Source: Chrysomallon squamiferum (lineage: Eukaryota > Animalia > Mollusca). Taken from it: DNA of 64,000 nucleotides. The stretch is taken from contig CM022672.1 in the NCBI GenBank assembly GCA_012295275.1, positions 27,528,001-27,592,000 of the forward strand. The letters run 5' to 3'. Below are positions 2,467-37,165 of this stretch, in pieces. A program made the translations under genes and the position numbers. Position 1 is the first letter of the stretch. Each line of letters starts with the position of its first letter. Under the pieces are notes generated by a model. That model was not told the origin of the DNA and ran no database searches. It saw only the letters and a list, made by a program, of their open reading frames with translations.

Positions 2467-2603
2467 ATTATATCGAGACTGTGGTCTTTAAAAAGAGGTG
2501 GAATCAGCTGTCAAGATATGACTTTGCCAGAAAGTTCCTCTGCAAAAGTGGATATGCTCGTCTTAAACAAGGAACTTCAAAGAAACGAAAAAAAATATTT
2601 TAA
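2467..2603 (+). CDS. BEN C-terminal variable exon P1: DYIETVVFKKRWNQLSRYDFARKFLCKSGYARLKQGTSKKRKKIF*
   Basis: tttgtttcag acceptor, phase 1, full motif. Confidence 0.8.
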
Positions 2604-3927
2604 CATAAGGAATCTAAAAATAATTATTTTAAAAAGTAATGTTGTTTTGAAATGAGGTACAATAAATATATTGGATATTGATTGTTTCACAGAATAAATT
2701 TAATTATAGACTGTCACTGGATTTCAAAAATATCATATGCTGAAGAAGTATTGAAATTAGTGTTTTGATCCAGCTTTGGTGTTTGATTGTTGATGAAGTA
2801 TTTCAGTATTATCAGTGAATATCATTTTGCTAATTAAAATCTGTAGTTGATTTTTAATCTCTTTTCTTTATTATTAACCCATCATGTTGACACAGCTGAT
2901 TCTGTGACAAAGTCATTAAAATATGTTAGTCAAACATGTATCAAAACAATGGTTTTTAAAAATCACCTGATATTTTGACTTTTGGGGGTTTTGTTGTTGT
3001 TGTTGTTGTTGTTGTTGTGAGGTGTTTGTCTTTGTTTTTTGTTTTTTTTACCAATTGTCAAATTTGGTGACCGAAAGGATAATACAGCATATAACCAAAA
3101 CATGTTTGCTGTTGAAGGTTCTTGATTTTTAATACAGTAACATCATTTATAGGGTCCATAAATGTGACAGGTCACAGTTTATGTAAAATTTGAGAAGACA
3201 AACAGCCTGATAAAACCAGTATTGTTTTTATCTGCATTACATAGTTGTAAAAGGAAGACATTAAAAACCTATAATATCTTTTAATAAGAAAAACCCAAAG
3301 ATAATAATGCACATTACACAAGTAATGTACTAGCATATCAACTGAACATAAAATATATTAATAGCTAATATTGTAACATCATTTCAATTTTTGATCCTTT
3401 CAAGACAATCTAAGCACATAAACACACACACACATACATATAAAGATAATTATTGTTCAGTCCCCCAAAAAGAACAAATAAAATAAAATAAAATAAATAA
3501 ATAAAATTAAGAAAGAAAGAAAAAAAAGATTTTTTAATAAACAAAATACATTTTAAAGGATTAATATAAAATATATTTGATTAGAAATGAATTATATTTA
3601 GTATTATACAGTAAAATTCGACTGTATATATATATATATAAAATATAAACAACCGAATAGCAATATACATATATACTACTATGATTTCCAGAAGTTCTTA
3701 TGTATTAAATTATCAAAGGAAATAGTCTTTATTAGTTTAGCATCTTGAATATTGCAATAAACAGCTTTAGAATTATCTCAGTGTAAAATACCATCGATAA
3801 ATAAAATTAATAATAATATTTATTCCTCTCTGTAATCAAATTTTTCCTGGTAAAGCATTTACTGACTTTTTTGTTGTAATTTCAAGGTTGTAGTTAAAAT
3901 ATTACTCAGTATTATAATTTGTTTCAG

Positions 3928-4067
3928 ATTATATCAGGGCTGTGGCCTCTAAACTTGAATGGCACATATTATCCAAGTCTGAATTTGCGAAAAAGTTCTT
4001 CAACAAACGTGCTTATGCTCGACAAAAACAAGGATTTCCAACTCAGAAGCGAGTACAGATAACATGA
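3928..4067 (+). CDS. BEN C-terminal variable exon P2: DYIRAVASKLEWHILSKSEFAKKFFNKRAYARQKQGFPTQKRVQIT*
   Basis: tttgtttcag acceptor, phase 1, full motif. Confidence 0.8.
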
Positions 4068-5326
4068 GTATGGGTAGAAAGCAGTTTGTCACTAGTACTT
4101 TGTAGTTCGTTGAAAAGACAGAAGCAGCATGCTGCCTTAATGTGCCATACTTTTACCAAGAAAAACAAAATATACATTTATAATATAAATTAAAAAAGAA
4201 GATATTTTAGAAATGTCTCTAATACGTTTGTTACTTAATCACTGTGTTAAAAACACTGGACACGAGTATTATTAAGGAAACTGTTATTGTGTGAATATAC
4301 AAATTATATGTTGTTGCTTTTGGTTTTGGAATCATTGTTAGAATGTGCTTCCTGTTATTGTTCTGCTGTTGGCAAATTTACAAAAATACAATTCTCACTG
4401 GTTCTGGTGAGAGATGACAAGACAGTTTGAAAATTTAATCTATTAATAAACTTTTATTTTTTATTATTATTTTTTTTTTAAATTTAATTTAACTTTTTAT
4501 TTTATAAGTTACATTATTTTTAAACTGTTTAATCTGATGTAAAATAGTTTTAAACGCTATTTTTTTAATTATTACAGTTTTATTGTCAAAACATATATAA
4601 TAATTAATATATCTATCTGACAGTCATTATGTAGTGTTCATCTACTGTAAATGGTTGTTTTCTAACTATTGACTTTGTTATTCCATGTGCGTTTATCCAA
4701 GGCTGAACAAGTTAGTGTTACAAGAGCAACACTTCATATTTCTCATATTAAAAATACCTGTCACAAATCATATAACAGAGAGCATTCATGGTTTAGAGCA
4801 TTCCTGACTTTGTTTCTGATCATACTATTTTCTGCACTATTTTCAACATTGTTATTCAGAGCAGACTATCACTCTGTGGTATTTTGCAAATTTAATGAGG
4901 TGTTGAATCTTTGTTTTTGTATTTTTTCATATTCCTTTTTCAGTGTTGTTTTTTGAATTATTTGTTTCCATAGGATGAAATATGTTTGGCTTTAATGCTT
5001 TCTTTGAATGGAAGGAACATAGTTTTATTTTAATTTTAATTTTTTTTCAAGTTCAGACTATTATTTCTGTGATTTCTCAAAATCTGAACTAACCTCTTGC
5101 ATTATTTCCTATTCAAAAATCTAAGTTAGCGGTTATCGTAACAAGGAAGAAAATGGTTAATTCTAATTTTTGAAAATATCTGTTATATCATATCTGCTTG
5201 TAGTTACAGTGTTAGCAGAATTGTAAGGTTTAGTTTTTAGATAATTACTCAGCATGGAGATTAAATTCTAAACACAGATGAAATAATGCCAAAGATTAAA
5301 ACAGGAAATTTTACAATTTATTTCAG

Positions 5327-5484
5327 ATTTTGTGAACTTGGTGATCGATATCAAAGGATGGCAGCACTTGCTACCTACTGATTTTTCAAGAAAGTTGATC
5401 AACAAACGTGCCTACGCTCGTATTAAACAAGGGCTCCAAACATTCAGCATAGGAATGGACATAAAAAATCTGTCTTTTTCTTGA
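5327..5484 (+). CDS. BEN C-terminal variable exon P3: DFVNLVIDIKGWQHLLPTDFSRKLINKRAYARIKQGLQTFSIGMDIKNLSFS*
   Basis: tttatttcag acceptor, phase 1, full motif. Confidence 0.8.
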
Positions 5485-7017
5485 TATTTGATTTCTTTTT
5501 ATTACTATATTTGTTAAAAGATTTTTAAAAAATCATAAATCTTTCATTATGAGAACTTTATTATTTGTTGGTGTTAATTTGAAATTTGACATTTTTTTCA
5601 AAAACTTATTTTGGATTTTATGGGTTTTTGGGGGGTTTTTGTTTTTGTTTTAATGAATCGAAATGTATGTGTCTGAAACTTACAACCTTAATGTTTGTTG
5701 ATGGATATTGTTTGTTTATTTGTTTGATTTTAAAAAACCAAAGAAGTAAACTGTTTACTTGAAACCAATTTTTAGTTCAACATTTTTCTATCAGATAGTC
5801 TTGAATGTGAAGAAAACTCATTATAAGCTCTGATTTACTGTTAGTGGCAAGATCAAGAATAAAAATCACAAAGTGAAGTGGTTAAATGTTACTGTTTAAG
5901 TGAAAACATTTTCTTTTTCTACATGATGGATGGTCTGCTTGAGATGTGGTGGGTCACTAGATCAGTTGCTCTTGATACCATTCACAACTAGTTAAACATT
6001 CTAACATTAACTGTATTATATACCATCCTGCTGTGAGATGGCACATATAAACAAGTGTTTGCTGTTTATCAGGAAGGTGTCCTTAAACAAGTCTGATATT
6101 GTATAACCATAATTACAGTGTGTTGTGTTTCATCTTCCTTTTTTCCATCTTGTCAAAGATGAATGTACTCTGTGAGATTCTTGTTATTGTTTTGTTAAAA
6201 TGGTTTCTCTGGTTTGACACTGCACACCTTCATATTTGAAAATAAAAAATCTCCAAGTACTATATCTTCATCTAAAAGGCAAATAAAGAAAGGTTACTTG
6301 AACAGATGATCACCATCCAAAACTTTCCTCTGAGAGAGATCGTGTGAGATTTAAAGTATTTATTTTCATGAACCAAAGACATTTTATAGTAGAATTAAAA
6401 ATTACAGTTATGTTCAGTTATTAGATATTTTAATGTGCAGATACATACATTTAAAGAAAATAAAATCTATATTTTGTTTCTTGTTTTAAAACTTTTGTTT
6501 TATTTATACTGTTGTTATTTTTATATAAATATGCAAGGAGTGTTATCAAATGGTTCATTATCCTATCTTTATCAAAAGTGTTAGTGTAGTGCAAAAGTTC
6601 CAGTTTTGCCAGTTATCAAGCATTTAAAATATTATTAACCAGTAGCTGTCCACATGTACTTCATCAGTATAAAAATAATTGCAATAATTATGGTCTTGTA
6701 AAACAGAATTCCACATACACTGCAAACAACAGAACTATTTTATTATACTGAGACTGTCAGATAAACCTGGACACCAATAGAATCACAAAACTGTTAACTA
6801 TGCAACAATGCACCAAAATAATTACCAAAAAATATTACACACTTTACTGTAACGGTTTAAAGTTTTTATAATGGAATACATGTACAGTGACAATTAAGTA
6901 AAAATATCTTCTGGTAATTAAACATTCATTTAGAAAAGAAATATTAAAATTCATTTAATTTAGTAAAAGTATAGCTCATTTTGTCACAATGCTGTTTAAA
7001 ACCCCACTTCTTTACAG

Positions 7018-7136
7018 ATTATTATTCAAGAGTGTGTCATTTGAAAACATGGAGGACATTAGACAGAAAAGAACTTATGAAGAAGTTTTACAACAAATGC
7101 ACTTCTGCAAAGCAATCTCTGCTTCTTCTTGTGTAG
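7018..7136 (+). CDS. BEN C-terminal variable exon P4: DYYSRVCHLKTWRTLDRKELMKKFYNKCTSAKQSLLLLV*
   Basis: cttctttacag acceptor, phase 1, motif with K at position 32. Confidence 0.8.
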
Positions 7137-7414
7137 CTGACTTGTGGACAAAAGAATTTTAAAAAAAAAAAAATGCATACAGAGAGCCTTTCATTTTGTT
7201 TTTACTCTGTTCATGGCTGAGATACATTTCAGAATTTCAAAAACATTCTTACAGGAAGGTGGAATAAAAGAAATTTAAAACGTCGGACAATTATGTTTGT
7301 TCCGGGTTGAATTTAAAAAAATAAGAAAAAAAAAAAAAAAGACATTTTAGATATTTGTTAACATATTGCTTATCCTATTGGTCATGAATTTTTGGTTTCA
7401 CCAGTTTGATAATA

Positions 7415-7456
<42 letters not shown>

Positions 7457-7460
<4 letters not shown>

Positions 7461-7816
7461 TTCACACCAAATGTCACATTTTTGTTGCACTGGGCATTTA
7501 GTTACCCACAGAGAACATGTAACATTCATTCAAATGTATATATATATAATATATATTAATTTGTATCAAATCCACTGTGGATATTTTCCACTGAATATCC
7601 CACAGCTGGTTTATGTACCTTCCTACCTATTGGGAAAATGCATGTCCTGTCCTTTTATAAGTTTATCTTACAACAGCTGCTGTGTAGTAAAGCAGGTTTA
7701 CACTCACATTCTCTCATCATCAAGATAGCTAAACACCATATTCTTCACACCAAACGTCACATTTTTGTTCACTGGGCATTTAGTTACCCACAGAGAACAT
7801 GTAACATTCATTCAAA
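7457..7816. repeat. Direct duplication of ~79 bp (7457-7535 and 7738-7816)
   Basis: ATTCTTCACACCAAAYGTCACATTTTTGTT..CACTGGGCATTTAGTTACCCACAGAGAACATGTAACATTCATTCAAAT occurs twice. Confidence 0.85.
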
Positions 7817-8440
7817 TTTAATTCAAACAGCTTAAGATAATTAATACGGACTTAACTTGAGTTCATCTCAGTGTACAGATTAAAAATACAAGTTTCTTCT
7901 ATATATTTTTATAGATTTATTATTGGGTTTTTTCTCTTCCATTTTTTCCAATTAAGTTACTGTTAAGAATTAAACTGAAAATATTCTTACTGGTTCAATG
8001 AATGTAGTAATTTGATTATTACATTTATATCAGATTTTAACACGGAAATGAATTATTACTTACAGCAGTATGATTCATTAATAAATCAGTTTTGTACGTT
8101 AGACAAGTTTTGAATGTGTGAAATTTTAATGTTAGTCATAATTATATCCATGTTAAAATAATTGTGGACTAGACACAGGTATTTAAAAAAAATAATAGTA
8201 AATTTAAAAATAAATTAAGAAATTTCAGTAAAACAGAACAACAACTAATGTTTAAGAAATCGTATACTTTAATTTTATTATGTACTGTTACATCTAATAA
8301 AGGTAATTTATTATTCATCAGCAAAACTGAAACAAACATTCATTTAAATATTTTAAACTGATTTTTTGCATATATTCGAGATCAGTCAACCTCTCATTGT
8401 TACTTATTAAATCCAGCTAATTTTTTATGATTTATTTCAG

Positions 8441-8571
8441 AATACATTGAATCTGTGTGTGCCATTAAAGGATTGGAAACATTAAATCATGCAAGGTTTA
8501 ACAGAAAGGTCATTGACAAATGTGCATATGCTAGAAGGGCAGTGAATTTGAAGATACAAATTCCAAAGTAA
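8441..8571 (+). CDS. BEN C-terminal variable exon P5: EYIESVCAIKGLETLNHARFNRKVIDKCAYARRAVNLKIQIPK*
   Basis: tttatttcag acceptor, phase 1, motif with L at position 12. Confidence 0.8.
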
Positions 8572-10831: not shown

Positions 10832-10977
10832 ATTTCCTTGAATTGGTGAGCTTGAAGGAACAGTGGCAGCAAATGACTCGCAAACTATTTATTAGAAAGT
10901 TTATTAACAAAAGTGCAAAATCTAGACTGAAGCAAAAAACACGACTCTTAAAACTGGTAATGACAAATATACAGTGA
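10832..10977 (+). CDS. BEN C-terminal variable exon P6: DFLELVSLKEQWQQMTRKLFIRKFINKSAKSRLKQKTRLLKLVMTNIQ*
   Basis: tttgttttcag acceptor, phase 1, full motif. Confidence 0.8.
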
Positions 10978-11618: not shown

Positions 11619-11830
11619 AATTCATCAAATGTGTGAATAGTAAGAATGGATGGCAGCCTATGAGTTTCCAACATTTTCTGCGGAAAGTCATAAACAAATG
11701 TACTTATTCTAGAACGAAGACAAAACGATGTGAATTCTTTGGATCACAAAGAGTTCACAAAAGGCAGACAACTAGCTCATTTGAAAGAGACACCAAATAT
11801 GGATCCCCTTTTGATGAACAACAAGATTAA
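11619..11830 (+). CDS. BEN C-terminal variable exon P7: EFIKCVNSKNGWQPMSFQHFLRKVINKCTYSRTKTKRCEFFGSQRVHKRQTTSSFERDTKYGSPFDEQQD*
   Basis: ttttctttcag acceptor, phase 1, full motif. Confidence 0.8.
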
Positions 11831-13392: not shown

Positions 13393-13574
13393 GTTTCCTG
13401 GTATTCTCCTGTGCCAAGAAAGGATGGATAGATGTTCATCATAAAATATTTGTCAAGAAATTCATAGACAAATGCAAATATGCAAGGAATAAACTTGCTA
13501 AATCCTATCACACTTCTGATGACAGCAGATTGCCTGTTAAATGTGTGCACAGGACTTATTGGATGCCCATGTAA
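13393..13574 (+). CDS. BEN C-terminal variable exon P8: GFLVFSCAKKGWIDVHHKIFVKKFIDKCKYARNKLAKSYHTSDDSRLPVKCVHRTYWMPM*
   Basis: tttgattttcag acceptor, phase 1, full motif. Confidence 0.8.
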
Positions 13575-14389
13575 CAACTTCAGAGGGCATAGTTGATGCA
13601 AGACTGTCTGGATATACACATAACCTCTTCAAAAAGAATAGTAATATACAAAAGAAAGAGTAATCAACTAATTCAAAATTTTATGTTGAACTTGAGTAGA
13701 AAAAAAACTTGGACATCTCTATATGTGTTGGTTTTAAAGATGAAAAGATTTCTTAACTAGAAGAAAATAATAAATCTGACATGTTTTGAACTATCAGTTT
13801 TGTTTGCAACACCATTCTACAAACACTGAAAAACTAGCTGAATGAAATGATTACTTGTTTATGATAGAAAAATGTAAAGAATGGCACAAAAATAACAGAT
13901 TTAAAAAAAAAATTCTTAACAATACTATTTGTGTAAAACTGTTGAGAAAGTTATTATAAAATATTAGGTTTCTTTGATCTACACTGTAATTGTAGGTCTT
14001 TATTAAGGCTTTTTAAACTGAAGATTTAGTTTGTCTATTTGTGACTGCAGTTGTTTGCTGTATTTGTTTATATGTGGCTGTTTTTGAATTGATCTTTATA
14101 GCAATCATTCAATCAGTCTTAGGTACAGAATACAGAAGACACCGTGCAGGTTCATAAGTGAGAATTCTATTTGAAATATTTGCAGTCACACTGCAAATAA
14201 CACCAAATAGTCCCAGTTATGCAAATAGCATGTTGATCTTGTCACTTTATGTAATGCTTGGTGATTATAACTCGTTATTATTTCAGATTTATTGATATAT
14301 GTCACACTTTTTATATGAACAGTTATTACGTTTTACTCATTTGTTTGTGTGTGTATAATGATGATGATATGACAAAGACAATCTTTCAG

Positions 14390-16660
14390 TAAACTCTTTG
14401 TATGGCATTGGCTTATGATGATGTTTATAGTAAACTATTTGTAGGGCGTTGTCTAACAGTGTTCTTTATAATAACTCTTTGTAGGGCATTGTCTAATTGT
14501 CTTCTTTATATTAAACTATTTGCACTTGTTACTGGTGTAACAATAATAAATTATTTGTATGGCATTGGCTAATGGTGATGTTTATAATAAATTATTTGTG
14601 TGGCACTTGTTACTGGTGTTCTTTATGATAAACTATTTGTATGGCACTTGTTCCTGGTATTCTTTATAATAAACTGTGGCATTGGCTAATGGTGTTCTTT
14701 ATAATAAACTGTGTGGCACTTGTTACTGGTGTTCTTTATGATAAACTATTTGTGTGGCATTGGCTAATGGTATTCTTTATGATAAACTATTTGTGTGGCA
14801 CTTGTTACTGGTGTTCTTTATGATAAACTATTTGTGTGGCACTTGTTACTGGTGTTCTTTATGATAAACTATTTGTGTGGCATTGGCTAATGTTCTTTAT
14901 GATAAACTATTTGTGTGGCATTGGCTAATGGTGTTTATAATAAACTATTTGTGTGGCACTTGTTCCTGGTGTTCTTTATGATAAACTATTTGTATGGCAT
15001 TTGTTCCTGGTATTCTTTATAATAAACTGTGTGGCATTGGCTAATGGTGTTTATAATAAACTATTTGTGTGGCACTTGTTCCTGGTGTTCTTTATGATAA
15101 ACTATTTGTATGGCATTTGTTCCTGGTATTCTTTATAATAAACTGTGTGGCATTGGCTAATGGTGTTTATAATAAACTATTTGTGTGGCACTTGTTCCTG
15201 GTGTTCTTTATGATAAACTATTTGTATGGCATTTGTTCCTGGTATTCTTTATAATAATCTGTGTGGCATTGGCTAATGGTGTTTATAATGAACTATTTGT
15301 GTGGCACTTGTTCCTGGTGTTCTTTATAATAAACTATTTGTGTGGCACTTGTTACTGGTATTCTTTATAATAAACTATTTGTGTGGCACTTGTTCCTGGT
15401 GTTCTTTATGATAAACTATTTGTGTGGCATTGGCTAATGTTCTTTATAATAAGCTATTTGTGTGGCACTTGTTACTGGTGTTCTTTATAATGAACTATTT
15501 GTGTGGCATTGGCTAATATTCTTTATAATGAACTATTTGTGTGGCACTTGTTCCTGGTGTTCTTTATGATAAACTATTTGTGTGGCATTGGCTAATGGTG
15601 TTTATAATAAACTATTTGTATGGCACTTGTTACTGGTGTTCTTTATAATGAACTATTTGTGTGGCACTTGTTCCTGGTGTTCTTTATAATAAACTATTTA
15701 TGTGGCATTGGCTAATGGTGTTCTTTATAATAAACTATTTGTGTGGCACTTGTTACTGGTGTTCTTTATAATAAACTATTTATGTGGCATTGGCTAATGG
15801 TGTTCTTTATAATAAACTATTTGTGTGGCACTTGTTCCTGGTGTTCTTTATAATAAACTATTTATGTGGCATTGGCTAATGGTGTTCTTTATAATAAACT
15901 GTGTGGCATTGGCTAATGATGTTTATAATAAACTATTTGTGTGGCACTTGTTACTGGTGTTCTTTATGATAAACTATTTGTGTGGCATTGGCTAATGGTG
16001 TTCTTTATAATAAACTGTGTGGCACTTGTTACTGGTGTTCTTTATGATAAACTATTTGTGTGGCATTGGCTAATGGTGTTCTTTATAATAAACTATTTGT
16101 GTGGCATTGGCTAATATTCTTTATAATAAACTATTTGCAAGGCACTTGTTACTGGTGTTCTTTATAATAAACTATTTGTGTGGCATTTGTTACTGGTATT
16201 CTTTATAATAAACTATTTGTGTGGCATTGGCTAATGGTTTCTTTATAATAAACTATTTGTGTGGCATTGGCTAATGTTCTTTATAATAAACTATTTGTGT
16301 GGCACTTGTTCCTGGTGTTCTTTATGATAAACTATTTGTGTGGCATTGGCTAATGTTCTTTATAATAAACTATTTGTGTGGCACTTGTTCCTGGTGTTCT
16401 TTATGATAAACTATTTGTATGGCACTTGTTACTGGTGTTCTTTACAATAAACTATATGTGTGGCACTTGTTACTGGTGTTCTTTATGATAAACTATTTGT
16501 GTGGCATTGGCTAATATTCTTTATAATAAACTATTTGTGTGGCACTTGTTCCTGGTGTTCTTTATAATAAACTATTTGTGTGGCACTTGTTCCTGGTGTT
16601 CTTTATAATAAACTATTTGTAGGGCATTGGCTAATGGTGTTCTTTATAATAAGCTATTTG
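14390..16660. repeat. Minisatellite, ~37-41-bp unit (AAACTATTTGTGTGGCAC/TT...GGTGTTCTTTATRAT), roughly 55 copies
   Basis: Directly visible tandem array with two interspersed unit variants (CACTTGTTMCTGGTG and CATTGGCTAATGGTG) and degenerate copies at the left edge. Confidence 0.95.
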
Positions 16661-17080
16661 TTGCTTATGGTTAATTATTTGTATTCAAAATCAAATTTTG
16701 GTTTAAGGATAGCTGTGACATGTATATATTGAGAAAACAACAACAAAAAAGAAATTATCTGAAATTCTGTAATTCACAGTAGTGGATTGAATATTACAAT
16801 CATTTGTTAAGTGATTTCTACTAATTTGTATGCATTTGATTCAGGTTTTGCCTCTTTCTTTTGTTGTTAAAGATGATCATAAAAATTAAAGTCGTTGCAT
16901 TTTGGTGGCATTTTTGTTTAAATTTTATTTATCTGTTTATTTGTTTTATTTTTATTTTATTATTATTATTTTTTTAAATAGTTGGCTCTGATTAAATACA
17001 TTGTAGATGTTAAAAACTGAATCAGAACATTTAGCAATATATATTTAAATGTTTCTACAAGTAGACATTTTGCTTTGCAG

Positions 17081-17196
17081 CGTACTTCAAATCTGTTTGC
17101 AGGAGATGTGGTTGGAATGACATCTGTCCAAAACTGGTGCCTAAGAAATTACAAGCCAAAATGACTAACTCACGGAGGAAATACTGTAACCAGTGA
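17081..17196 (+). CDS. BEN C-terminal variable exon P9: AYFKSVCRRCGWNDICPKLVPKKLQAKMTNSRRKYCNQ*
   Basis: ttttgctttgcag acceptor (identical to that of P10), phase 1, full motif. Confidence 0.8.
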
Positions 17197-18624
17197 TTTA
17201 TTCCGAGGAAACTTCATCAGTTTGAAAATCAGGAATAAGACATCTGTGGCATTCTAAAAGAAAAATATCTTCTGAAAAACAATTAATGCCATATCATTTG
17301 TCTTATTGTGTTAAATTGCATTTACTGGAGGCTCTTAAAAATAATGTAAAATAATTAAAAATATAATTTTGCTAGCTGACATCTTCTGAAGTTTATTAAA
17401 GGTGTGTGGATAATCTCAGTGATAAGTTTAAGATGTAGGACTGAAAATTTGTTTCTCTTCCTTGTAAATGATCAGAAGATTGGATTTTAGTGCGAGCTGA
17501 TTTGTATACAGTTACTAATCCTTTCAGTGAATAATTATAAATAGCTCCCAGCCAAATCAACAAGACTAGTTAATTCACTAGTACTTGCACTGCACACATT
17601 AGGGGTGAGTCCACTTCTTACAGCATAATGATAAAAAAATAAAAAATTCAAGTTGCTGGATAAATCTGCTTTCTGCAGTAAATGTAATTCTGAGAGGATA
17701 TACCTGCTTATCACAAGGAAAGGGTCAGTGTTAATTATTTAAATAGCAATGTTCAAGGATAAAGCTAAAATGTTTTAGTATTTGCAACTGATAATGAGAG
17801 TTTAGTGTTATTTTGTGTGTCCTTGTATGTTTACTAATTGGATAATAATATGTATGATAAATGTAAACATTTACATTTTTTGTTTTATTGTTTTGTTTTA
17901 GTTCAGTTCTGGTTTGCAGATCTAAATACTGAATGATGTATGTGACACAGTGTTGTGACAGTAGTAGTGATTGTTTTAAGCTTTTGAAAGGATCTTCATG
18001 TTTTATTGGGATGTGAAATACCAGAAAAAGGGGAAAAGGTTGTTGTAATTTTAAGTAAAGCTTCTTAAATATAATAAGTGAGTAATAAATAAAAAAAGAA
18101 ATTTAAAAAAAATTTAAAATATCTTTTTAAAAATTAGTTATTATTCTTTTTTTATTTTTTTTATTTTTAGCTTTATTTTTATTATTCTTTTTTTTTTTGG
18201 TAAAACTTCAGTAACATTTTATTTTCAGTTTTTTGTCAAACATTTTCAGTATTTTGAAGTCTGAATTGTGGATGTAAAAAGTCTAAATGTATTGACGAAC
18301 CATTTACATGATATGATAAATATATTTTTGTATATTTTAATAGGAATTTGTTGTTTAATTTACAAGTTTCAGAAAGACACTTATGGAAGATTAATTTGGT
18401 AGCAAATTAGTTATTTTCAGTAAATAAATAAATAAATAAATAATAATTTACCATCATTATTCTTCATTAATGCTGAACAAATTTCCACACATCAACTATT
18501 TTTCACCTATCAATCCATATCTATCCAGCCATTGTTTGCCACATATTTTACTAAAGACGTATTCTTCTTAGAACATTCAAAAATATCCAGACACCAACTT
18601 GACTGAAGTTGTTTTGCTTTGCAG

Positions 18625-18761
18625 ACTTCTTCCATTCTGCATGCAAGACAAAAGGATGGACAGACATGGACTCAAGACAGGTGCATAAGAAATTTCAGGA
18701 CAAAATCACAAATACTCGGAGGAAGTATGCTATTCAGAATGACACTCAGCAGTTTGACTAA
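18625..18761 (+). CDS. BEN C-terminal variable exon P10: DFFHSACKTKGWTDMDSRQVHKKFQDKITNTRRKYAIQNDTQQFD*
   Basis: ttttgctttgcag acceptor, phase 1, full motif. Confidence 0.8.
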
Positions 18762-20916
18762 AGTATATTTTCTTTTCTCTTCTCTGTGAAATGAATATAA
18801 AGAAATGCTGCAGTATTTTCTTAATAAGAAATTAGGAATGTAATGTAATGTGAAATTTAAAAAGAGCTGTTAATGCCATTCTGCATATTATAATTAAATT
18901 TTGGGTAGATTATTACAGGATGTGTTAAATTATTATATGGATGTTATCATTTTTCAATACTAAATCTATCATTTTCAGTGTAACATTTGTCACCACCATG
19001 GTCTGTTATTTTGACTGTTACAGAATTTGTCAGTACTCCAGATCTATCATTTTGACTGAATTACAACATTTGTCACCACATAAAAAGTTAAATCATTTTG
19101 ACTATATTGGTCACCATTGGTATGTTTCATTTTGACTGTTGCAGCTTAACCTCAGTAGCTTAATATATACCAATCAAGTTGGCCACTAACAATATTAAAA
19201 TTAAAAATTCCTTTAATTTAAACATGTTAATGTAATTAGGATACAGACTTTTCTGAAAAGAATATAGTCACAAAAATTTACGTTGACTACAATTCATGAA
19301 AAGTCCTGTTAGTCATTTTTGAGGCTGTTATTTAATGAGCATTCTAAACTGAAGAAGAAAATGTGTTTGAGAAGCTTCTGGTAATAATTGTGAAAGCATG
19401 TAAATTCATATCAGTGTGTGTATATAACTATTATACATATGTTTATTTTCATTATTCACCAGTTAATTCACAAGTAGTTGAATTTGGTTGTTGAGAACAG
19501 TAATGGGCGATTATTTTTTGTTGGTTTAATATTAATTTGCAAGATGGACGCTTGATGAAGAAAGGAAGACACTGAATGAAAGTTTATCTTTTAAAATGTA
19601 TTTTCATTTATATACGTTTTTGTTTTATGCTTCTTTCACACCATTTTTTATTGAATATTGTTTTGTTTTTTACTTCATAAGTGGACATTTGAAATAAACT
19701 GAAATGTTTATCAACTTTACCTTTTGTTTTGTTATATAATTCAGATGCTCTGTTTAATTTCTGGTTTCTAAACACGCCCTCAAAAAATTGTAGAAAATGA
19801 CCAGAATCCCAAACAAATAAAACAGTCTCTTCCAAAGCTTGTATTCTTTTTAATTTCTGATTTGTAAACACCCACCACAAAAACAAAAAACAAAAAAAAT
19901 AAATAAATAAAACAATTCTAATAATAATAATAAAAATAGTAATAATAATAACAATAATAATAATAACAATGATGATGATGATAAATGAATAAATATAATG
20001 AACAAAACCCCCAAACAAATAAAACAGGATTTATCTTCCAAAGTTTGTCAGTGATGTATCATTTATGTGTTACATATAAAAAATCTTTAGCAGCTAAATG
20101 ATAAATATAACCTACAGAATTAATATTGTACAAAAACAACATGTCTGACACCTAATAAATGTGTTGATAAAAATGACATTCTTGTTCATTATTTAAATTT
20201 CCTTTTTCTTTTTTCTTTCCATTTTTCTTTCTTTTCTTTTCTTTTTCTTATTTTTTGGTTTCTGTATTTAATTTGTTAGGATTATAATTATTCTGACTTT
20301 GTGATGAAATATTCAGATATTACTTTACAGAAATAACTGAGAAAAGATTTTAAAATATTTATTTGTAATAACAAAAAGAAACTCTTTGACTTCCACTCAA
20401 ACAACTCATCCTTAAAGAATCCTACAACTAATGGATTATTTTAAATAAAATTCTTAGTGTTTTTTTGTGTCGCTTATTTATTTGTTTATGTTTAATAATG
20501 AATGGTTTTATCTAGAATTGAGAACTTAATGATGAATTATTTTTATTATGTCTATCTTAACTTGAGTTATCCCAGTATTCCTTGAAGTTTATTTGATTTA
20601 CTTTTTTTACAAGTCTCTAAAAAACAGCTACCTATAAATTCAATTATTTTTATTTTGTCTCTACATAAACTAGAATTATACCCAGCATACCTTGAAGTTT
20701 ATTTGACTTAAATGAGTCTGTAGATAATAATCAGTATAAAATCAAATGGGATAATGGATGGATGAAATAAAAATTGGACTGTAGTGAATTTAGTTCTATA
20801 AATATTTTTAATAAGTAACAACACACACAGTTATATAATTTCCAGAGAAAATATCTGGGTTTTTTAATATCATCATCACCAGGTGTTAAGTGTGCATCTG
20901 TTATTTTTTGTTTCAG

Positions 20917-21071
20917 CCTTTCTGAAGGAAGTAACCGTGCAGACGAAGTGGACTTTATTGAATCCAAGACAAATCATAAAGAAATTCCAAGATAAAGTGA
21001 CAAACACACGCAAGAAACTGATTATGTCAGGATACCCTCTGCTCGACAGTTCTTCACTGTCTTCTAGCTAG
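20917..21071 (+). CDS. BEN C-terminal variable exon P11: AFLKEVTVQTKWTLLNPRQIIKKFQDKVTNTRKKLIMSGYPLLDSSSLSSS*
   Basis: tttttgtttcag acceptor, phase 1, full motif. Confidence 0.8.
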
Positions 21072-22882: not shown

Positions 22883-23013
22883 AATTTGTCCTGTTGTTAA
22901 GCAAGATGGCAGGTTGGCCTGTAATGGAATCAAAACAAATGCATGCAAAATTCAAGGACAAGATAACAAACGCTCGGAAGAAGTCCTTCATTGCAGCTAA
23001 TCTCAACAAATAA
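22883..23013 (+). CDS. BEN C-terminal variable exon P12: EFVLLLSKMAGWPVMESKQMHAKFKDKITNARKKSFIAANLNK*
   Basis: ttctatttgcag acceptor, phase 1, full motif. Confidence 0.8.
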
Positions 23014-23978: not shown

Positions 23979-24009
<31 letters not shown>

Positions 24010-25665: not shown

Positions 25666-25808
25666 TGTTCATAGAATCCAGCAGCAAAGTTCAAGGCTGG
25701 GATGCACTGGATCAAAGGCGGCTGCAAAAGAAAATTTTAGACAAAATGGCCAACAAAAGGAGGAAAACAGTACACATGAACAAAACTTTCGTAGACATAA
25801 ATGGCTGA
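25666..25808 (+). CDS. BEN C-terminal variable exon P13: VFIESSSKVQGWDALDQRRLQKKILDKMANKRRKTVHMNKTFVDING*
   Basis: ttactttacag acceptor, phase 1, full motif. Confidence 0.8.

Positions 25809-26276: not shown

Positions 26277-26278
<2 letters not shown>

Positions 26279-26332
<54 letters not shown>
26279..26332. repeat. (CA)n microsatellite
   Basis: Visible simple repeat; similar (TG)n/(CA)n tracts at ~23611, 28633, 32384, 47977, 50581, 60331. Confidence 0.9.
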
Positions 26333-26334
<2 letters not shown>

Positions 26335-27315
26335 GGATATAAATACATATGCTTTTTTTTTCTCTCAAATATTGATAGTGTTTGAATTGCAGATTTATGT
26401 TTAGACATATCTGATCATCATTAATAAATGAATAAAACAAAATTAAAGAAAAAAAAGAAGTAAAAATTTCACTTCAATTAATATTACCTTTTGGATTGTT
26501 TATTCAGTCAGCCAGTTTGTATTTATTTCATTCTTTTAAACATTTCATCTGTGCCATTCATTTTCCTCACTTCTGCTGTTTCTATAGAAACATTCAGCTT
26601 GTTATAAAGTCATCTTCTGCCTTCAAATACTTTAAATCTGTTTCTGACATTTTCCCCCACTTTCCAATACTGAGAAGCAGGCTTTCACTTGGTGATGCAT
26701 CAAAGATAGTAGCTGTCAGTTATACATCAGAAATGGTGTCAGTTATGCATTAGAGACAGTTACTGTCAGATATACATCAGAGACAACTGTTGTCAGGAAT
26801 ACATCAGAAATGTTTGTTGTTGCTGATACATCAGAGATAGTTGTTGAGATAGGCTTTTTCCTATTCCAGGTGATATCTCTTGACAAGATGCATCAGTGGT
26901 ATTAGTATCAGTGTGAGAGTGCACATAAAAGAGTTCTTGCTGTTGGTTGTTAACATTATTAAACTTTGGTTTAGTCGCAGTGGTTTCTTTCTTAACCAGT
27001 AGGTTTTACCAAGTAACCATTAAATGACTAACATAAATATATTTTCAGATTTCATTAAACATAAATTTATTTTTAATTTATTCAGAATGTGTGTCTAAGA
27101 ATTATTTTACTCTAGTTAATGTTACTGGATTAAAAACATTAAACATCACATACCTTTCTTTTGTTAGTTTTATTTAAGGGTTCACATACATCATTATTTT
27201 TATTTTTATTGATTGCTATATAGTTTTTGTGATCCCAGTGAATGTCATTCTAGGGGACTGCACACAGTAATGAATAATCTCTTTAGTTTGACTGTTGCTT
27301 CATGTTTTATTTCAG

Positions 27316-27443
27316 AGTTTATACACTTAGTTTGCAAGGTCAATGGGCATCCACCACTACAAAGCAAGGATATCCACCGAAGATTCACCAATAAATGTTC
27401 ATATGCAAGACTGTTGAAGAACAATCGTGCTGCTATGACATAA
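27316..27443 (+). CDS. BEN C-terminal variable exon P14: EFIHLVCKVNGHPPLQSKDIHRRFTNKCSYARLLKNNRAAMT*
   Basis: ttttatttcag acceptor, phase 1, motif with H at position 12. Confidence 0.8.
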
Positions 27444-28627: not shown

Positions 28628-28671
<44 letters not shown>

Positions 28672-29706: not shown

Positions 29707-29843
29707 AATATTTCAAATCCATCTGTCAGAAGTTGGCTTGGCAAGAACTTTCAACCAGCAGTTATAACAGCAAATTTCACCAAAAGTGCTTTCAAGCAAG
29801 GCACTCCAGAAGTTACATGAAACATAAAAAGCTGACTTTCTGA
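29707..29843 (+). CDS. BEN C-terminal variable exon P15: EYFKSICQKLAWQELSTSSYNSKFHQKCFQARHSRSYMKHKKLTF*
   Basis: tttgtttcag acceptor, phase 1, full motif. Confidence 0.8.
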
Positions 29844-31335: not shown

Positions 31336-31628
31336 CAGGTACCGGACCAATTATCTAGATTCCTTTGGGGCCTGAGGCATTCAGTACCAAGACACCTAAA
31401 TCATTCTAAAATTAAAAACATAAAAAAAATTGAAGATATGGAACTCTGGCGACTCAACACGTAAAAAATGTGGCGAGTGAATGAATGCCATGTGGCTTGA
31501 AAGAGTAGTTTCAGTCTGGTGAGGACAACAGCTGCACATGCAAACTATGAAAATAGTGTCGGGGCAAAAAACTTCCAGTTTTCTAGTCTTTCTGGATTTC
31601 AGGAACCGGATAATTGGTCCACTACCTG
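31336..31628. mobile_element. MITE / non-autonomous DNA transposon with ~29-bp imperfect TIRs and TA target-site duplication (Tc1/mariner-type ends)
   Basis: Left TA|CAGGTACCGGACCAATTATCTAGATTCCT; right AGGAACCGGATAATTGGTCCACTACCTG|TA (reverse complement CAGGTAGTGGACCAATTATCCGGTTCCT); no transposase ORF. Confidence 0.8.
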
Positions 31629-32044
31629 TAAATACACTTACTGTTTTATGTTGTAAGCTTAGGTAAAATTCATCAGCAGCATCTATAAACTAAAATTCCT
31701 CCCAAATAGTCCTACAAAAAACTGGTTACATACAGTTTACTAAATTTACCTTTTTCTCTTCAGCCAGTTGTTTGAGTTATTATGGCACAGTCTGAGAAGA
31801 TTACAGTTAATATGGACATATTTCCAATCAGAAGGTTGTTTTTCAGTTTCTGTTTTATTTAGTTTGGTTTGACTCATTCAGGTTTTAGTGAGAATATATT
31901 TTCAGAATTTTTTTTATTAATAATGTGTCCTCTCCTTTTCATTAGAAATCTTTTCCTATTTTTTCTTTCAGTTCTTAATTTCAGCCCTAAACCACACAAA
32001 CATGGATCTGTTGATGCTAAAAGAGTTTTGTGTTTTGTTTTCAG

Positions 32045-32190
32045 AATATTTTTACAAATCATGCTTCAAGAACAACTGGTCTCCTCTCCATCGTGCACTG
32101 TTTGTGAAAAAGTTCAGTAACAAGTGCACGAAGGCGCGACTCAAAGTGCAGGACAAAGGCAAACAAAGGTTAAACACGGGACTCTGTTGA
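32045..32190 (+). CDS. BEN C-terminal variable exon P16: EYFYKSCFKNNWSPLHRALFVKKFSNKCTKARLKVQDKGKQRLNTGLC*
   Basis: tttgttttcag acceptor, phase 1, full motif. Confidence 0.8.
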
Positions 32191-32380
32191 AAAATGAATT
32201 TGTAGTACTTGGACATGGGCATCTGATTAAAAACAAAAAATAATTAATAATAACAATGAAAGTAATAATATAAATAATAATAACAATAATAATATGTAAT
32301 AAATAATAAATAATAATAATAAAATAATTATAATAATTAAAAAATAATAATAATAGTAAACAATAATATTAAATAAATAT

Positions 32381-32411
<31 letters not shown>

Positions 32412-33339
32412 ATGTACACACATTTCTGAAATACTTGTATTCTAAAGAGAAAATTTCAGCTAGATGTGCATTAAATTAAAGTAAAAATATCAAATTTGCA
32501 TGGAGGACTTAAGGATTTTTTTTTAATCCTTCCCCACAACCTTATTCTGGTTTTTCTCAGCATTCATGACTAGTTCCCAGTGACCAAGATTTGAATGGTT
32601 TTGAAAGCATATTGTGTTTTATTTTTGAAATATTGTCATATGATGAGTATTTTATATACATGCCCACTGAGTGTGATGTAGGCCATTTACCAGTGCAAGT
32701 ATCTACATACACATCCACCTTCTAATAGGATCAGTTTATAATTCTTAGTGTAAGTACTAATTTATTCTGTAACATGGTCCAGTTTTTTAGTTTGTCTTTT
32801 TAATGTGTGCAGTCATGATGTCAGGTGTTATTTAGAATTCTTAGCAGTGTAAGATATTTGTATTCTGTAAGCAGTTTTTTATTTTTTTTACTTTTATTTT
32901 TTATGTGTACAATCACGTCTGCATACTGAGTAGCATCTTTGATTTCATCTGAACTGTTTAAATTATCAGTCAGTCACACAATCAGAAAAGGTATCTTGAA
33001 ATGAGACAGTCATTTTTACTTTAAAGTAAACAAATAAATAAATAGTTATTTGTATATTTTATTTTTTTTATGTTACTAGAAGTTATTTATAATTAAAGTA
33101 AAAAAATAAAAAAATATAAAAAATCAAACAGAGAAGCAAAAATATCATAATAAAAAAGAAAATAAAAAAAATGTTTGGCAAATAAAAATAACATCACACT
33201 GTTTAGCTTAGAGTACAAGTACTTGAAAACCTGTTACGTTTAACATGGTCTGTTATTATTTTTATTTTTTATTTTGAAGGTCTGTTATTTCTACAGTGCA
33301 TTTTATAAGATGTTTCTTTTTTTATTTTGTTTTTTTCAG

Positions 33340-33485
33340 AATACTGCCAGTGGGTGTGCAGCGGACAGACATGGAGTGAATTACCTCCGTCCATCTTCTA
33401 CAAGAAATTTCACAAAAAGTGTTTCCAAGCAAGACATTCCTTGGGTTTTGCACACAAAACATACTGCCGGAGGGTGCCTTTTTAG
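33340..33485 (+). CDS. BEN C-terminal variable exon P17: EYCQWVCSGQTWSELPPSIFYKKFHKKCFQARHSLGFAHKTYCRRVPF*
   Basis: ttttttcag acceptor, phase 1, full motif. Confidence 0.8.
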
Positions 33486-34735
33486 TTTCTGCAACCTAAA
33501 CCTTTTAGCTCAGATATTAACACAGCTAACACACTTTTAACTGAAAGCAGGATTACCACAAACATTGCTTCAGTCAGATGGTTAATTATGAAAGTCTCCA
33601 TTTTCACAGAAGTCATGATTTCTGTCCAGCCACTGGATTGGTTCTATTTAGACAACTACAAATGTTACAATCATTCTGACTGGTAGAAATGAAAATCTTT
33701 ATTTTTATTATTTTATTTATTATGTGAAACATTATCACAATGTCTGATAAGTTTGTAATTATAGAAAAAACAAAGTGAAAGGGATTCAAATGTTTCACCA
33801 GATTGATCAAGACTTTCAGAAAACAAGGTGAACAAATGAGGTGATGTGATGCAACATGCATGAATAATCATTCCAGAGTTATGTCAGATCTTTGTTGTTT
33901 TAGTTTACTTTTTCTTTTATTATTATTAATATTATTTATTTATGTATTTATTTTATTTATTTTAACATTAAAATACCAAAGAAAAAGGAGAAAAAAAGAT
34001 CAGTAGAGAAATAAATATTTATATCTTTAACTGAATTTTTCCCTCTCCTTCATAACAATATACCAGTATTTTTATTATGTTTTTTTAATTTGAAACCAAA
34101 AATCTCTATGGTTTTCCCATGTTACTTTAAGAAAATGACTTAAATATGTTCTGATAACCAAACTGAATGTTTGTTTTTACTTTGTTTAGGGCTTTGTTCT
34201 GTATGTATGAGTGTGTGTGTGTGTGTGTTTACATTTATTGTAGATGTTAAGACACAATTTTATATCATGTTTCTCAATCCAATAAATGTGGATTTAGTTG
34301 TCAGTTGTTGTTTTTTATGGGTTTTTTTTGTTTTTTTGACAGTTTTTTATTTTATTTTTTTATTGTTCTATGTTGATATAAAAAATAACAAACACTCTAC
34401 TTTGGTCTAACAAAGAACAATAAATGTTTTTATTAAATGTTAATGATAAAATATTATAAAACGATTTAAAATACAGTCAAAAAACAAGAAATGGATATTA
34501 TACTTTAACTCTTTGAATACCCTTACTGAGAGTATCCAGGCAAAATGGCCAATATTTGCAATATCCATTGTCAGTATCTACAGTTTGACTGGAGTTATTA
34601 ATTAAAAACAACACTTCAGTCAATATGGATAGAAAAAAAACAAAAAAAACATTTAATTATTTTTCTGTGAAAGAAACAATTCATTCAATACCGTTAGTAA
34701 AAACCATTCCAGGTTTTTTCCATGAATGATACAGT

Positions 34736-34869
34736 TCAGTCAATACAGATAGGATAAAACATTCCAGGTTTTTTCCGAGAATTTGTTATTTTATTCCATA
34801 CTTTCTTCACAAACTCTTTATGCTCCATTTGTGGCCAGTCTTGTCGCTGACACGTCAGACTGATGTATT
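34736..34869 (-). CDS. BEN C-terminal variable exon (cis) M2: EYISLTCQRQDWPQMEHKEFVKKVWNKITNSRKKPGMFYPICID*
   Basis: tctttgcag acceptor, phase 1, full motif. Confidence 0.85.
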
Positions 34870-34939
34870 CTGCAAAGATCAAGAAAACATGGTCTCAGTG
34901 TGAGCAAAAATAATTCATTTTTATACTGAGAAACCATCC

Positions 34940-35385
34940 AAATAGCACCAGCATTGATTCACTCATAAATAAATAGCATCTCCAGTATCAATTCACTCAT
35001 AAATAAATAGCATCTCCAGTATCAATTCACTCATAAATAAACAGCACCTCCAGTATCAATTCACTCATAAATTAATAGTTTCACTATCATTAACTCATAA
35101 ACAAATAGTTCCAGCACCAATTGACTCATAAATAGTTCCAGTATTAATTGACTTATAAATAAATAGCACCAGTATCAATTCACTCATAAATTAAGTTCCA
35201 GTATCAATTCACTCATAAATAAATAGTTCAAATATCAATTTATTCATAAATAAATAGCACCTCCAGTAACAATTCACTCATGAATAAATAGTTCCAGCAT
35301 CAATTAACTCATAAATAGTACCAGTATCAATCCATTCATAAATAAATAGCAGAACCAGTTTCAAGTCCCTAATAAATAAATAGTA
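34940..35385. repeat. Minisatellite, ~28-34-bp unit (CCAGTATCAATTCACTCATAAATAAATAGCA..)
   Basis: About 14 degenerate tandem copies immediately upstream (minus-strand sense) of exon M2. Confidence 0.85.
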
Positions 35386-36077
35386 ATAAAATGTATATAT
35401 AAATAAACTATATTGTCAATGTTATATTTAAAACAACACTGACAATAAAGTTTATTTATATTTTTTATATTATAGTAAAATTTGCCAAATGTAAGTTCAA
35501 GTCATATATTTTAATGTACTATAAATCACGTTAGTTTGTATAGGCTATCCCAACAAACCAAATAGGAATGTGCTCTGGTTCACTTCCGCTACAACTGTTG
35601 AACACAGTTTCATGTTAAGGTATGTTTTAGTCATGTGGAAACAAGATAAATCTAATCTGATTTCATTTCTGAAGAAGGTTATCATAGATCATGACTGACA
35701 CACTGCTAAATGTTAACATTTAAAAATAGTTTTATTTCCTTGTCACAGTCTTTGTTTCATTCTTCATGTTTTAAATGCTTTCACAGAAAATCCATCCCTG
35801 AATTAACATTATATTTTATTTAAATACTGTTTTTCACTTTTAGTATAGAAATAAATAATAAATTTAAAAAAAAGAAATAAGAAAAAGAACAAAATCTAGG
35901 GTCTAAAAAAAAATAATAATAATAATAAAAATTAATAAAAGAATTCAGGAAGTATCAAAGTTTGTGGTTCTTAACCCTTTTTTCAGTGCCCCCCCTTTTT
36001 TTTCTTTTACATTTTATACTGATCGTAGAAATACAATGACAATGAATGATGTAGTGAAGTTATAACATATATTATTA

Positions 36078-36229
36078 TCAACATTTCAAATCTTTAGATA
36101 CATTAAACTGGGAAGCTTGAACACTCTTCCGGGATCTTTTGTGTGAACATTTATTGGTGAATTTTCGGTTGAGTTCTTTTGCTAAAAGTTGTTGGTATCC
36201 TTTCTTTTTGCAAACTAAGCGGGTATATT
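36078..36229 (-). CDS. BEN C-terminal variable exon (cis, same strand) M1: EYTRLVCKKKGYQQLLAKELNRKFTNKCSHKRSRKSVQASQFNVSKDLKC*
   Basis: ttttatttcag acceptor, phase 1, motif Y2/C7/K23-F24/N26-K27/R32. Confidence 0.85.
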
Positions 36230-36515
36230 CTGAAATAAAACATGAAGCAACAGTCAAACTAAGTTATTGAGCTACTCTTAAAAGGGTTTCCCCAGTAACC
36301 CAGCACAAACAAATTTAAAAATGGGATGCTGAAATAATGACAAAATAAAAAATATATATCTGACTTACTAAATAAATGAAGAAAGTGATATTCTGATAAA
36401 AGCTCATTCAATGTGAAATCTGATTATGTTAAAATAATTTATTATTAATATTATTATTTGTTTGTTTTTTTACAAAGAATTATGTTGGCTTTATAATCTA
36501 ACAACAACGGTTTAA

Positions 36516-36560
<45 letters not shown>

Positions 36561-36906
36561 GCCCCCAAAATTAAACTAACCCTGACAATATTATCACAAT
36601 AAAGATAAAATATTCAGTTTATTTTTTTCACTATATTATCAGTAACATCATCATCATCATCACAATTACAAGATAAAATAAATATAGTCTTAGACTTGCA
36701 CTTAATTTCAGTTGAATGGTCAACCAAGCAAACACACACAAATAAATTAATGTAAAAAACCCCCAAAACTACTACCACAACTACTTCTATTACAACTACT
36801 CCTACTATTATTGCTGCTAATACTACTGCTACAACTGCTATTACTACTACTACTAATAATAATAATTTAAAAAATGAAGGTAAAAGAAAAACAGAATTGT
36901 ATTGAC

Positions 36907-37165
36907 CTCGTATTGCGTCCACCCTGACTGGGTCTAATGGTCGCTGCTGTTCAGATTCTCGTTTCCTTGGTTTCATTCCTAGACCGGTGGAGCTGGCTAG
37001 TTCACTGGGTGAAAAGAGGAGATCAATGACCAGGTTGAGGAGGGCGCTGGAAGGGTCGCGACTGTGAATAGCTCGGATTTCAGCTTCCACCAAAGCATTT
37101 CTGTTCACTTTGACTGATGCATATTTTTTGGCAATTTCAGGTTCTGGATCAAGAATTTTTGAGGC
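36907..37165 (-). CDS. Shared exon encoding the N-terminal part of a BEN domain
   Basis: ttatttttag acceptor (phase 0), 259 nt, phase-1 donor CGAG|GTCAAT. Peptide ...SALLNLVIDLLFSPSELASSTGLGMKPRKRESEQQRPLDPVRVDAIR matches the BEN pattern (L..LF...EL...S..G.....LDP..V.AI) but lacks the C-terminal helix. Confidence 0.85.

Follow-up and report, generated by a model that had tools for sequence, protein, structure and literature searches.

Organization of the locus

The window analysed here, a stretch of 64,000 nt from Chrysomallon squamiferum, contains the exons of a minus-strand gene, gene A, and an array of 19 homologous short exons that we refer to as helix exons (Table 1). The first constant exon of gene A encodes a conserved domain of about 78 aa that belongs to no known family and has no Pfam match, including none to BTB. 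It is 91% identical over 80 aa to the G. aegis proteins P0001-P0003 and is their sister in the tree (support 0.98). Behind this constant N-terminal region, gene A has three alternative exons, two of them encoding C2H2 zinc fingers and the third the N-terminal part of a BEN domain, an arrangement overlooked in the first-pass annotation. The BEN exon itself was correctly delimited there: it spans 259 nt and has a phase-0 acceptor and a phase-1 donor, G/GTCAAT. By itself it matches Pfam BEN at E 0.12, and its sequence is present in RNA runs X7 and X8. None of the 3 G. aegis isoforms of gene A that were compared is a BEN isoform.

Table 1. Exons and transcribed pieces in the window. Isoforms and P numbers refer to G. 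aegis; fractions are identical residues.
Feature	Position	Strand	Remarks
Helix exon B1	2467..2603	+	Isoform X8, P0022; 27/32, reciprocal best hit
Helix exon B2	3928..4067	+	No partner among isoforms compared
Helix exon B3	5327..5484	+	X11, P0032; 29/32, reciprocal best hit
Helix exon B4	7018..7136	+	X12, P0031; 17/32, reciprocal best hit
Helix exon B5	8441..8571	+	X9, P0092; 22/32, reciprocal best hit
Helix exon B6	10832..10977	+	No partner among isoforms compared
Helix exon B7	11619..11830	+	No clear partner
Helix exon B8	13393..13574	+	No partner among isoforms compared
Stretch 56-85 nt beyond B8 stop, GT after it	13630..13659	+	Spliced onto B9 acceptor in one RNA contig (run X7); exact mapping
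Helix exon B9	17081..17196	+	X6, P0036; 20/32, reciprocal best hit; acceptor used in RNA run X7
Non-coding pieces 3' of B9	17542..18038	+	Donor after 17723; small exon 17902-18038; GT-AG onto B10 acceptor; joints in RNA runs X7, X4, X1
Helix exon B10	18625..18761	+	X7, P0028; acceptor used in 3 of 4 RNA runs
Helix exon B11	20917..21071	+	Probably X3, P0034; tree sister (support 0.83), not reciprocal best hit
Helix exon B12	22883..23013	+	X10, P0094; 23/32, reciprocal best hit
Helix exon B13	25666..25808	+	X5, P0035; 17/32, reciprocal best hit
Helix exon B14	27316..27443	+	33-nt acceptor identical to that of A1
Helix exon B15	29707..29843	+	X2, P0093; 22/32, reciprocal best hit
Helix exon B16	32045..32190	+	X4, P0096; 20/32, reciprocal best hit
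Helix exon B17	33340..33485	+	Paralog of B15; final exon of plus array
Helix exon A2	34736..34869	-	Same strand as BEN exon
Helix exon A1	36078..36229	-	Same strand as BEN exon; inverted duplicate of B14
Gene A BEN N-terminal exon	36907..37165	-	Helices 1-3, loop, first half of helix 4
Gene A alternative last exon, C2H2 zinc fingers	41281..41796	-	Phase 0; Pfam zf-C2H2; 81% to P0002, isoform X2
Gene A alternative last exon, C2H2 zinc fingers	44522..44860	-	Phase 0; Pfam zf-C2H2; 66% to P0003, isoform X1
Gene A constant exon 2	50080..50432	-	Ends ...VELFK, phase 0; splice sites and phase from sequence; tblastn to P0003 residues 274-356
Gene A constant coding exon 1	50753..51398	-	ATG at 51398; phase-1 donor

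The helix exons were searched for with a profile derived from 16 seed exons and scored on all 771 AG sites that have an open phase-1 frame of at least 33 aa. Exactly 19 exons are recovered, 3 of them non-seeds, with scores of 43-62 (next best, -2.8), in agreement with the nineteen short exons with polypyrimidine-AG acceptors reported earlier. An ungapped six-frame scan in which stops were allowed found no further copies in the window. CAG stands directly before every exon, the 20 nt at the acceptors hold 11-18 pyrimidines (background mean 9.7), and all 19 frames are intact, the phase-1 frame being open for 38-70 aa. The gap-free alignment over 32 residues and its residue counts also hold as first given: Y/F2 in 19/19, W12 in 16/19, K23 in 18/19, K27 in 19/19 and R32 in 18/19. 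The corresponding motif occurs 19 times in the window and 0 times in each of 30 block shuffles, although this result only sizes chance since the motif was derived from the same 19 exons.

Two probable convergent genes

The claim that all 19 exons continue the BEN exon stands as regards phase, as every helix acceptor is in phase with the donor of 37165-36907, but fails for most of the array as regards strand. In the assembly as given, the plus strand carries 17 helix exons (2467-33340), and the BEN exon has only those at 36229 and 34869 beside it on the minus strand; thus, ordinary cis-splicing cannot join these 17 to the window's BEN exon. No second BEN exon is found in the window by tblastn. 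The plus and minus arrays are convergent, with 1251 nt between their last stops, and the strand switch (~33.5-34.7 kb) is flanked by a 128-nt inverted repeat.

The further claim that one locus makes the whole family is not supported, as the plus-strand exons match isoforms of a different paralog, LOC121383032. G. aegis RefSeq holds BEN helix isoforms with a constant scaffold, 11 from one gene and 3 from a second; these are automated models, in which the junctions from the constant part to the last exons are present. Among the isoforms compared, six plus-strand exons have no partner and one is ambiguous. The BEN exon of gene A shares 51 of 86 residues with that of LOC121383032. Over the core the identity is 41/66, no closer than that of two paralogs to each other (46/66). 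We infer that a gene B, likely the ortholog of LOC121383032, lies to the left of the window, and that the helix exons are spliced similarly in this species; two metagenome scans found no gene B constant exons from this species.

Our best reading, of good though not full confidence, is that two paralogous transcription-factor genes lie tail to tail and use the 19 exons as alternative last exons, each of which is predicted to supply a DNA-recognition helix of its own and so complete a BEN domain. Gene A would join its two constant exons to a zinc-finger exon or to the BEN N-terminal exon and, in the latter case, to one of two helix exons. Gene B, on the plus strand, would begin to the left of the window and choose among at least 17. 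The likely origin of the cassette is that the last exon was duplicated again and again behind an old phase-1 intron in mid-helix 4, and the choice of helix likely takes place in cis, through alternative-last-exon splicing and polyadenylation in the manner of lola.

The helix exons as the predicted end of a BEN domain

The proposal that the BEN scaffold stays constant while its C-terminal recognition helix can be exchanged is supported by the G. aegis isoforms, the predicted fold and the residue pattern. Pfam BEN (PF10523) matches all 14 natural G. aegis BEN isoforms, of which 6 are above the gathering score; for the gene B isoforms, 3 of 11 reach the cut-off of 23.2 bits, and one matches at E 0.069. 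One natural isoform was folded computationally and gives a BEN fold of five helices with a long C-terminal helix 5, the exon border lying in mid-helix 4.

Position 32, which is R in 18 exons and K in one, aligns to NACC1 R468, while positions 26, 29 and 33 align to NACC1 D462, T465 and R469 and vary among the 19 exons, giving 17 distinct residue triples. Several exons are alike at residues 26, 29 and 30, three of them having D26-T29-N30 in common, and B10 carries the same set as NACC1 (D26, T29, N30, R32 and R33). B15 and B17, by comparison, have F29 and Q30, and B1 has C26, G29 and Y30; both types are predicted to prefer motifs other than that of B10. The positions equivalent to NACC1 base contacts are variable between exons and kept between species. 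Variable helix-5 positions are conserved in 79/99 cases vs. 103/209 for the variable positions 2-21. Orthologs could have kept such residues for structural reasons and not for specificity. In the proposed design, the scaffold, the minor-groove loop and the phosphate-binding residues remain constant while the base-reading residues change, and the isoforms are therefore predicted, from their residues, to bind different motifs.

Transcripts at two acceptors

RNA contigs from 4 runs show splicing at the acceptors 17081 and 18625. Every junction seen there comes from non-coding sequence 3' of the preceding helix exon, and at 17081 the junction from past B8 is the sole spliced entry. The pieces spliced onto B10 contain no AUG that opens the helix frame. 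No BEN-to-helix junction is found at these 2 acceptors in the 4 runs, where short two-sided junction pieces are probably invisible in contigs; contigs cannot reveal the 5' ends of transcripts either.

Alternative explanations

The strand distribution could also reflect mod(mdg4)-style trans-splicing, in which the BEN exon of gene A is also joined to opposite-strand helix exons, so that two scaffolds share a pool of 19 helices and the plus-strand exons may have their own promoters. The common phase of all 19 acceptors with the gene A donor would allow it, as would the 33-nt acceptor identical in one plus and one minus exon and the short non-coding exons spliced onto 18625; in mod(mdg4), as far as the cited text describes, alternative exons occur on both strands with independent promoters (PMC13490949). 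We nevertheless regard this as unlikely. The cis partner gene accounts for the plus-strand exons in G. aegis, the non-coding pieces follow the 3' end of the preceding exon almost without a break and the donor used for 17081 lies just beyond the preceding stop, both of which fit read-through, and no strand-switching junction was observed, in a stretch that has no BEN exon. Less probable still is that all 19 exons serve the window's BEN exon in cis, the strand switch being an assembly inversion or a lineage-specific rearrangement. The single BEN exon in the window and the inverted repeat at the switch speak for it, yet in G. aegis the same exons follow the BEN exon of another gene, to which that of the window has paralog-level identity, and two exons without a LOC121383032 partner are correctly placed behind the window's BEN exon. 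We give this reading very little weight.

A different doubt concerns function. The exons may be kept while their products recognise identical or similar motifs, or a large number of the exons may be mostly read-through non-coding 3'UTR, so that the array tunes partners, stability or dosage and not the DNA target. The non-coding junctions at both acceptors point this way, as do the near-invariance of K23, K27 and R32 and the shared D26-T29-N30; moreover, in the available portions of PMC8887127 and PMC11472053, the constant loop between helices 3 and 4 can supply part of BEN base reading. Against it are the diversity of triples at 26/29/33, the better conservation of variable helix-5 positions and the 19 intact frames, and we rate it as improbable, marginally more so than trans-splicing. 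Cis choice within two convergent genes remains our preferred interpretation.

Comparison with known systems

According to the portion of PMC10551640 at hand, Drosophila lola, which encodes a BTB protein, has some 20 alternative last exons (17 for zinc fingers), each with its own stop and 3'UTR. On that account the snail genes share with lola a constant N-terminal region and many alternative last exons with different DNA-binding ends, and the zinc-finger and BEN endings of gene A form a lola-type arrangement. They differ in that lola swaps whole zinc-finger modules, whereas the snail genes add a nested choice of part of one folded domain, and in that lola has a BTB domain while the snail N-terminal domain has no BTB match. 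The G. aegis family comprises 11 loci with 2-20 endings each, and there are 122 distinct C-termini among the 124 proteins compared.

Drosophila mod(mdg4), in the excerpts of PMC13490949 and PMC4281564, is a BTB gene with more than 30 trans-spliced variable 3' exons on both strands, and its isoform C is among the BEN proteins. It thus resembles the snail locus in its C-terminal exons on both strands and in BEN as one possible ending. Most helix exons lie opposite the window's BEN exon, as in mod(mdg4), but here two convergent genes explain the strands and trans-splicing is only a candidate; as excerpted, mod(mdg4) has BEN in one isoform, in contrast to a set of alternative helices in the snail. 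The Type I BEN proteins NACC1, BANP, BEND6 and Insv/Bsg25A, in the texts available, have one fixed helix 5 each, whereas that of the snail would be drawn from a set of 17 or 2 exons. Tandem duplicated exon substitutions, as sketched in PMC9741552, likewise exchange one C-terminal region for another through homologous exons (a class that takes in 77 of 236 human events), but in the snail the copy number is high (17) and the swapped part is the DNA-recognition helix inside a globular domain.

The best non-snail relatives belong to an unnamed BEN subfamily in echinoderms, a hemichordate, sturgeon, lungfish, salamanders and platypus. A K-x-x-N-A-R-R-like helix is present in most members, and 42 of 131 matches are inferred to share the intron position. 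Among its representatives we found neither the snail N-terminal motif nor isoform pairs that share a scaffold and differ in the helix, the latter being a weak test with one protein per 50% cluster.

Implications

Searches of titles and abstract openings, which covered few subscription papers and included BEN domain with trans-splicing or gastropod, found no papers on snail BEN helix-swap isoforms, and RefSeq names these products 'uncharacterized protein isoform X'. The motifs read by BEN domains differ considerably, and only a few structures have so far revealed the residue code. One gene would here provide natural variants of helix 5, numbering at least 11 (G. aegis) to 17, that share an identical scaffold and are conserved between two species. 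They form a ready series with which SELEX could decipher how BEN domains recognise DNA. Exon 18625 is a built-in control, as its NACC1 contact residues predict a preference for a CATG-like core. The host genes appear to be an undescribed mollusc family with the design of lola and mod(mdg4) and a different N-terminal domain, in which splicing would exchange the recognition helix within a folded domain and not the whole domain. If cross-strand trans-splicing were true, it would be a mollusc counterpart of mod(mdg4), with two scaffolds mixed with 19 DNA-reading helices.

Helix exons and the BEN exon

The BEN exon of gene A, a minus-strand gene of the window, ends in phase 1 as the first-pass annotation had described, and no second BEN exon is found elsewhere within the 64-kb window. 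The second half of helix 4 and helix 5 are predicted to be supplied by short, look-alike exons (helix exons, named here by start and strand). A profile built from 16 seed exons was run over every AG site followed by 33 aa or more of open phase-1 frame (771 sites); it recovered the 19 exons reported previously (scores 43–62) and none beyond them, all other sites scoring −2.8 or less. A stop-tolerant six-frame scan of the window added no decayed copies, and the motif count is 19 in the window vs. 0 in 30 shuffles. All 19 exons align without gaps, their acceptors all end in CAG, and the five residue counts given earlier are exact on recount. The helix-exon feature is genuine. The earlier description had placed the whole set behind the BEN exon and omitted strand: 17 of the 19 lie on the opposite strand.

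Features of the window
Feature	Position	Strand	Remark
Plus-strand helix exons (17)	2467-33340	plus	
Tandem repeat, ~2.3 kb	14390-16684		inside plus array, between exons 13393 and 17081
Minus-strand helix exons (2)	36229, 34869	minus	same strand as BEN exon
Minisatellite	34940-35407		shorter than the 2.3-kb repeat; between the two minus helix exons
BEN exon	37165-36907	minus	donor phase 1, G|GTCAAT
Gene A constant exon 2	50432-50080	minus	exon pair ends in phase 0
Gene A constant exon 1	51398-50753	minus	upstream of BEN exon
Conserved N-terminal domain, ~78 aa	51165-51398	minus	no known family
Actin-family gene exons (Pfam Actin)	~54500-64000	minus	upstream of gene A; presumably ARP5-like

Gene A and its family

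Downstream of the constant exons are three phase-0 acceptors, namely those of two C2H2 zinc-finger last exons and that of the BEN exon. Over its N-terminal 80 aa, gene A shares 91% identity with the Gigantopelta aegis database proteins P0001-P0003, vs. 56–79% for the other 87 matches (G. aegis, Haliotis); the zinc-finger exons match P0003 at 66% and P0002 at 81%. The N-terminal domain has no match in Pfam, in PDB or by fold, the structure model being weak. It is common to many G. aegis loci with alternative endings (zinc finger, Psq helix-turn-helix or BEN), and also occurs in Haliotis proteins carrying PF12012. Among the G. aegis proteins retrieved, 11 loci have more than one isoform, and the 124 proteins have 122 distinct C-termini. 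Two isoforms of LOC121384041, X11 (P0040) and X6 (P0043), have endings with no precomputed Pfam domain, which by eye are neither BEN nor zinc finger.

Ownership of the plus-strand exons

G. aegis LOC121383032, which matches the window's exon 1 at 72%, has 12 isoforms (automated RefSeq models) sharing one BEN exon; 11 run on into 11 different helix exons, while one stops after five residues. Each of these 11 helix exons has a plus-strand exon as its best match in the window. For 10 of the 17 plus exons the hit is reciprocal; exon 20917 (+) finds its partner solely through the tree, and the remaining six lack a counterpart in the retrieved G. aegis isoforms. A third paralog, LOC121383526, has three BEN isoforms, one with a weak reciprocal hit to exon 36229 (−) (score 83). 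The window's BEN exon was ruled out as the ortholog of that of LOC121383032, because the two share 41 of 66 core residues vs. 46 of 66 between LOC121383032 and LOC121383526; it shares 37 of 66 with the latter.

The initial claim that one locus owns all helix exons is not supported, since the plus exons match a different paralog. The simplest reading of the sequences is that two tail-to-tail paralogs are likely: gene A would have two helix exons behind its BEN exon, and gene B, the presumed counterpart of LOC121383032, would start left of the window and carry at least 17 on the plus strand. Two metagenome scans revealed no constant exons of gene B for Chrysomallon squamiferum. That the strand switch is an assembly artefact or a lineage inversion is highly improbable.

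Cross-strand trans-splicing is unlikely, though it has a precedent in mod(mdg4), where variable exons occur on both strands under promoters of their own (PMC13490949). It gains something from the longest inverted repeat in 1-40000 (27283-27410 (+) / 36135-36262 (−); 128 nt, 77%), within which one plus and one minus helix exon have an identical 33-nt acceptor (next best pair, 13) but match at only 66 of their first 101 bases. Such identity is suggestive of exchange between the two arrays; it could stem from gene conversion, exon transfer or RNA pairing.

Conservation of helix positions

Residues that differ among exons tend to be kept between species. Pairwise identity among the 19 exons is 0.30, 0.23 and 0.09 at positions 26, 29 and 25, vs. 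11/11, 10/11 and 10/11 identical species pairs, respectively. At variable positions 24-34 the residue is conserved in 79 of 99 comparisons, vs. 103 of 209 at variable positions 2-21, the positions being non-independent. As a control for circularity, pairs were re-derived from positions 2-21 only, and 10 of 11 were the same as before; positions 26, 29 and 33 then match in 27 of 33 cases vs. 8.2 when pairs are drawn at random (at most 22 in 20,000). The 19 exons have 17 distinct residue triples at these three positions. Separately maintained DNA specificities would look like this. Against this pattern, we consider it rather improbable, slightly more so than trans-splicing, that the isoforms bind the same motif or that use of the exons is mostly non-coding, the latter touching on the RNA data below.

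RNA in Chrysomallon squamiferum

The BEN exon is present in nine sequencing runs, two of them recorded as RNA. Junctions were viewed over 16995-19850, in contigs of four runs. In three of the four, GT-AG splicing links acceptor 18625 to the donors that follow 17723 and 18038; two of these three are labelled ‘DNA?’ and may have been the source of the window itself. In run X7, one contig connects acceptor 17081 to 13630-13659, just downstream of the preceding helix exon's stop. The joined upstream pieces have no AUG opening the helix frame. Most simply, these are 3′UTR read-through splices between successive helix exons; the acceptors are therefore functional, and part of the array's expression is non-coding. 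Read-through RNAs across 13630-18625 (+) could be decay targets or a means of regulating exon choice. No BEN-to-helix junction occurs in these contigs; where either side of a junction has many partners, its piece would probably cover just ~30 nt of the stretch and may go undetected. A contig of run X8 that begins exactly at the acceptor AG fits this.

Origin and known systems

A search of 1.84 billion protein representatives gave 132 matches, ten of which were traced to their taxa (echinoderms, a hemichordate, sturgeon, lungfish, salamanders and platypus). P0148-P0169 form an unnamed BEN subfamily of those taxa, the closest non-snail relative. Among the 131 non-G. aegis matches, Gly directly follows the junction position in 43, all but one of which (42) end there, as expected from read-through of a G|GT donor; 37 others are full-type and 51 unclassified. 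We infer that the phase-1 intron in helix 4 is old, which would have left helix 5 as a separate last exon open to duplication. No second helix cassette was found among the matched representatives, a weak test.

Of the 20 last exons of lola, 17 encode zinc fingers (PMC10551640). A BEN ending is already on record for mod(mdg4) (PMC4281564), and swaps between homologous last exons occur commonly (PMC9741552). The snail cassette works like lola and mod(mdg4), and, as in lola, the snail loci join a constant N-terminal part to many alternative DNA-binding last exons; the ~78-aa domain may be a candidate counterpart of the lola BTB. A search of titles and abstracts found no published account of a large exon cassette that exchanges a BEN domain's recognition helix, nor of the mollusc family of gene A. 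The swappable-helix idea holds up, not as one gene but likely as two.
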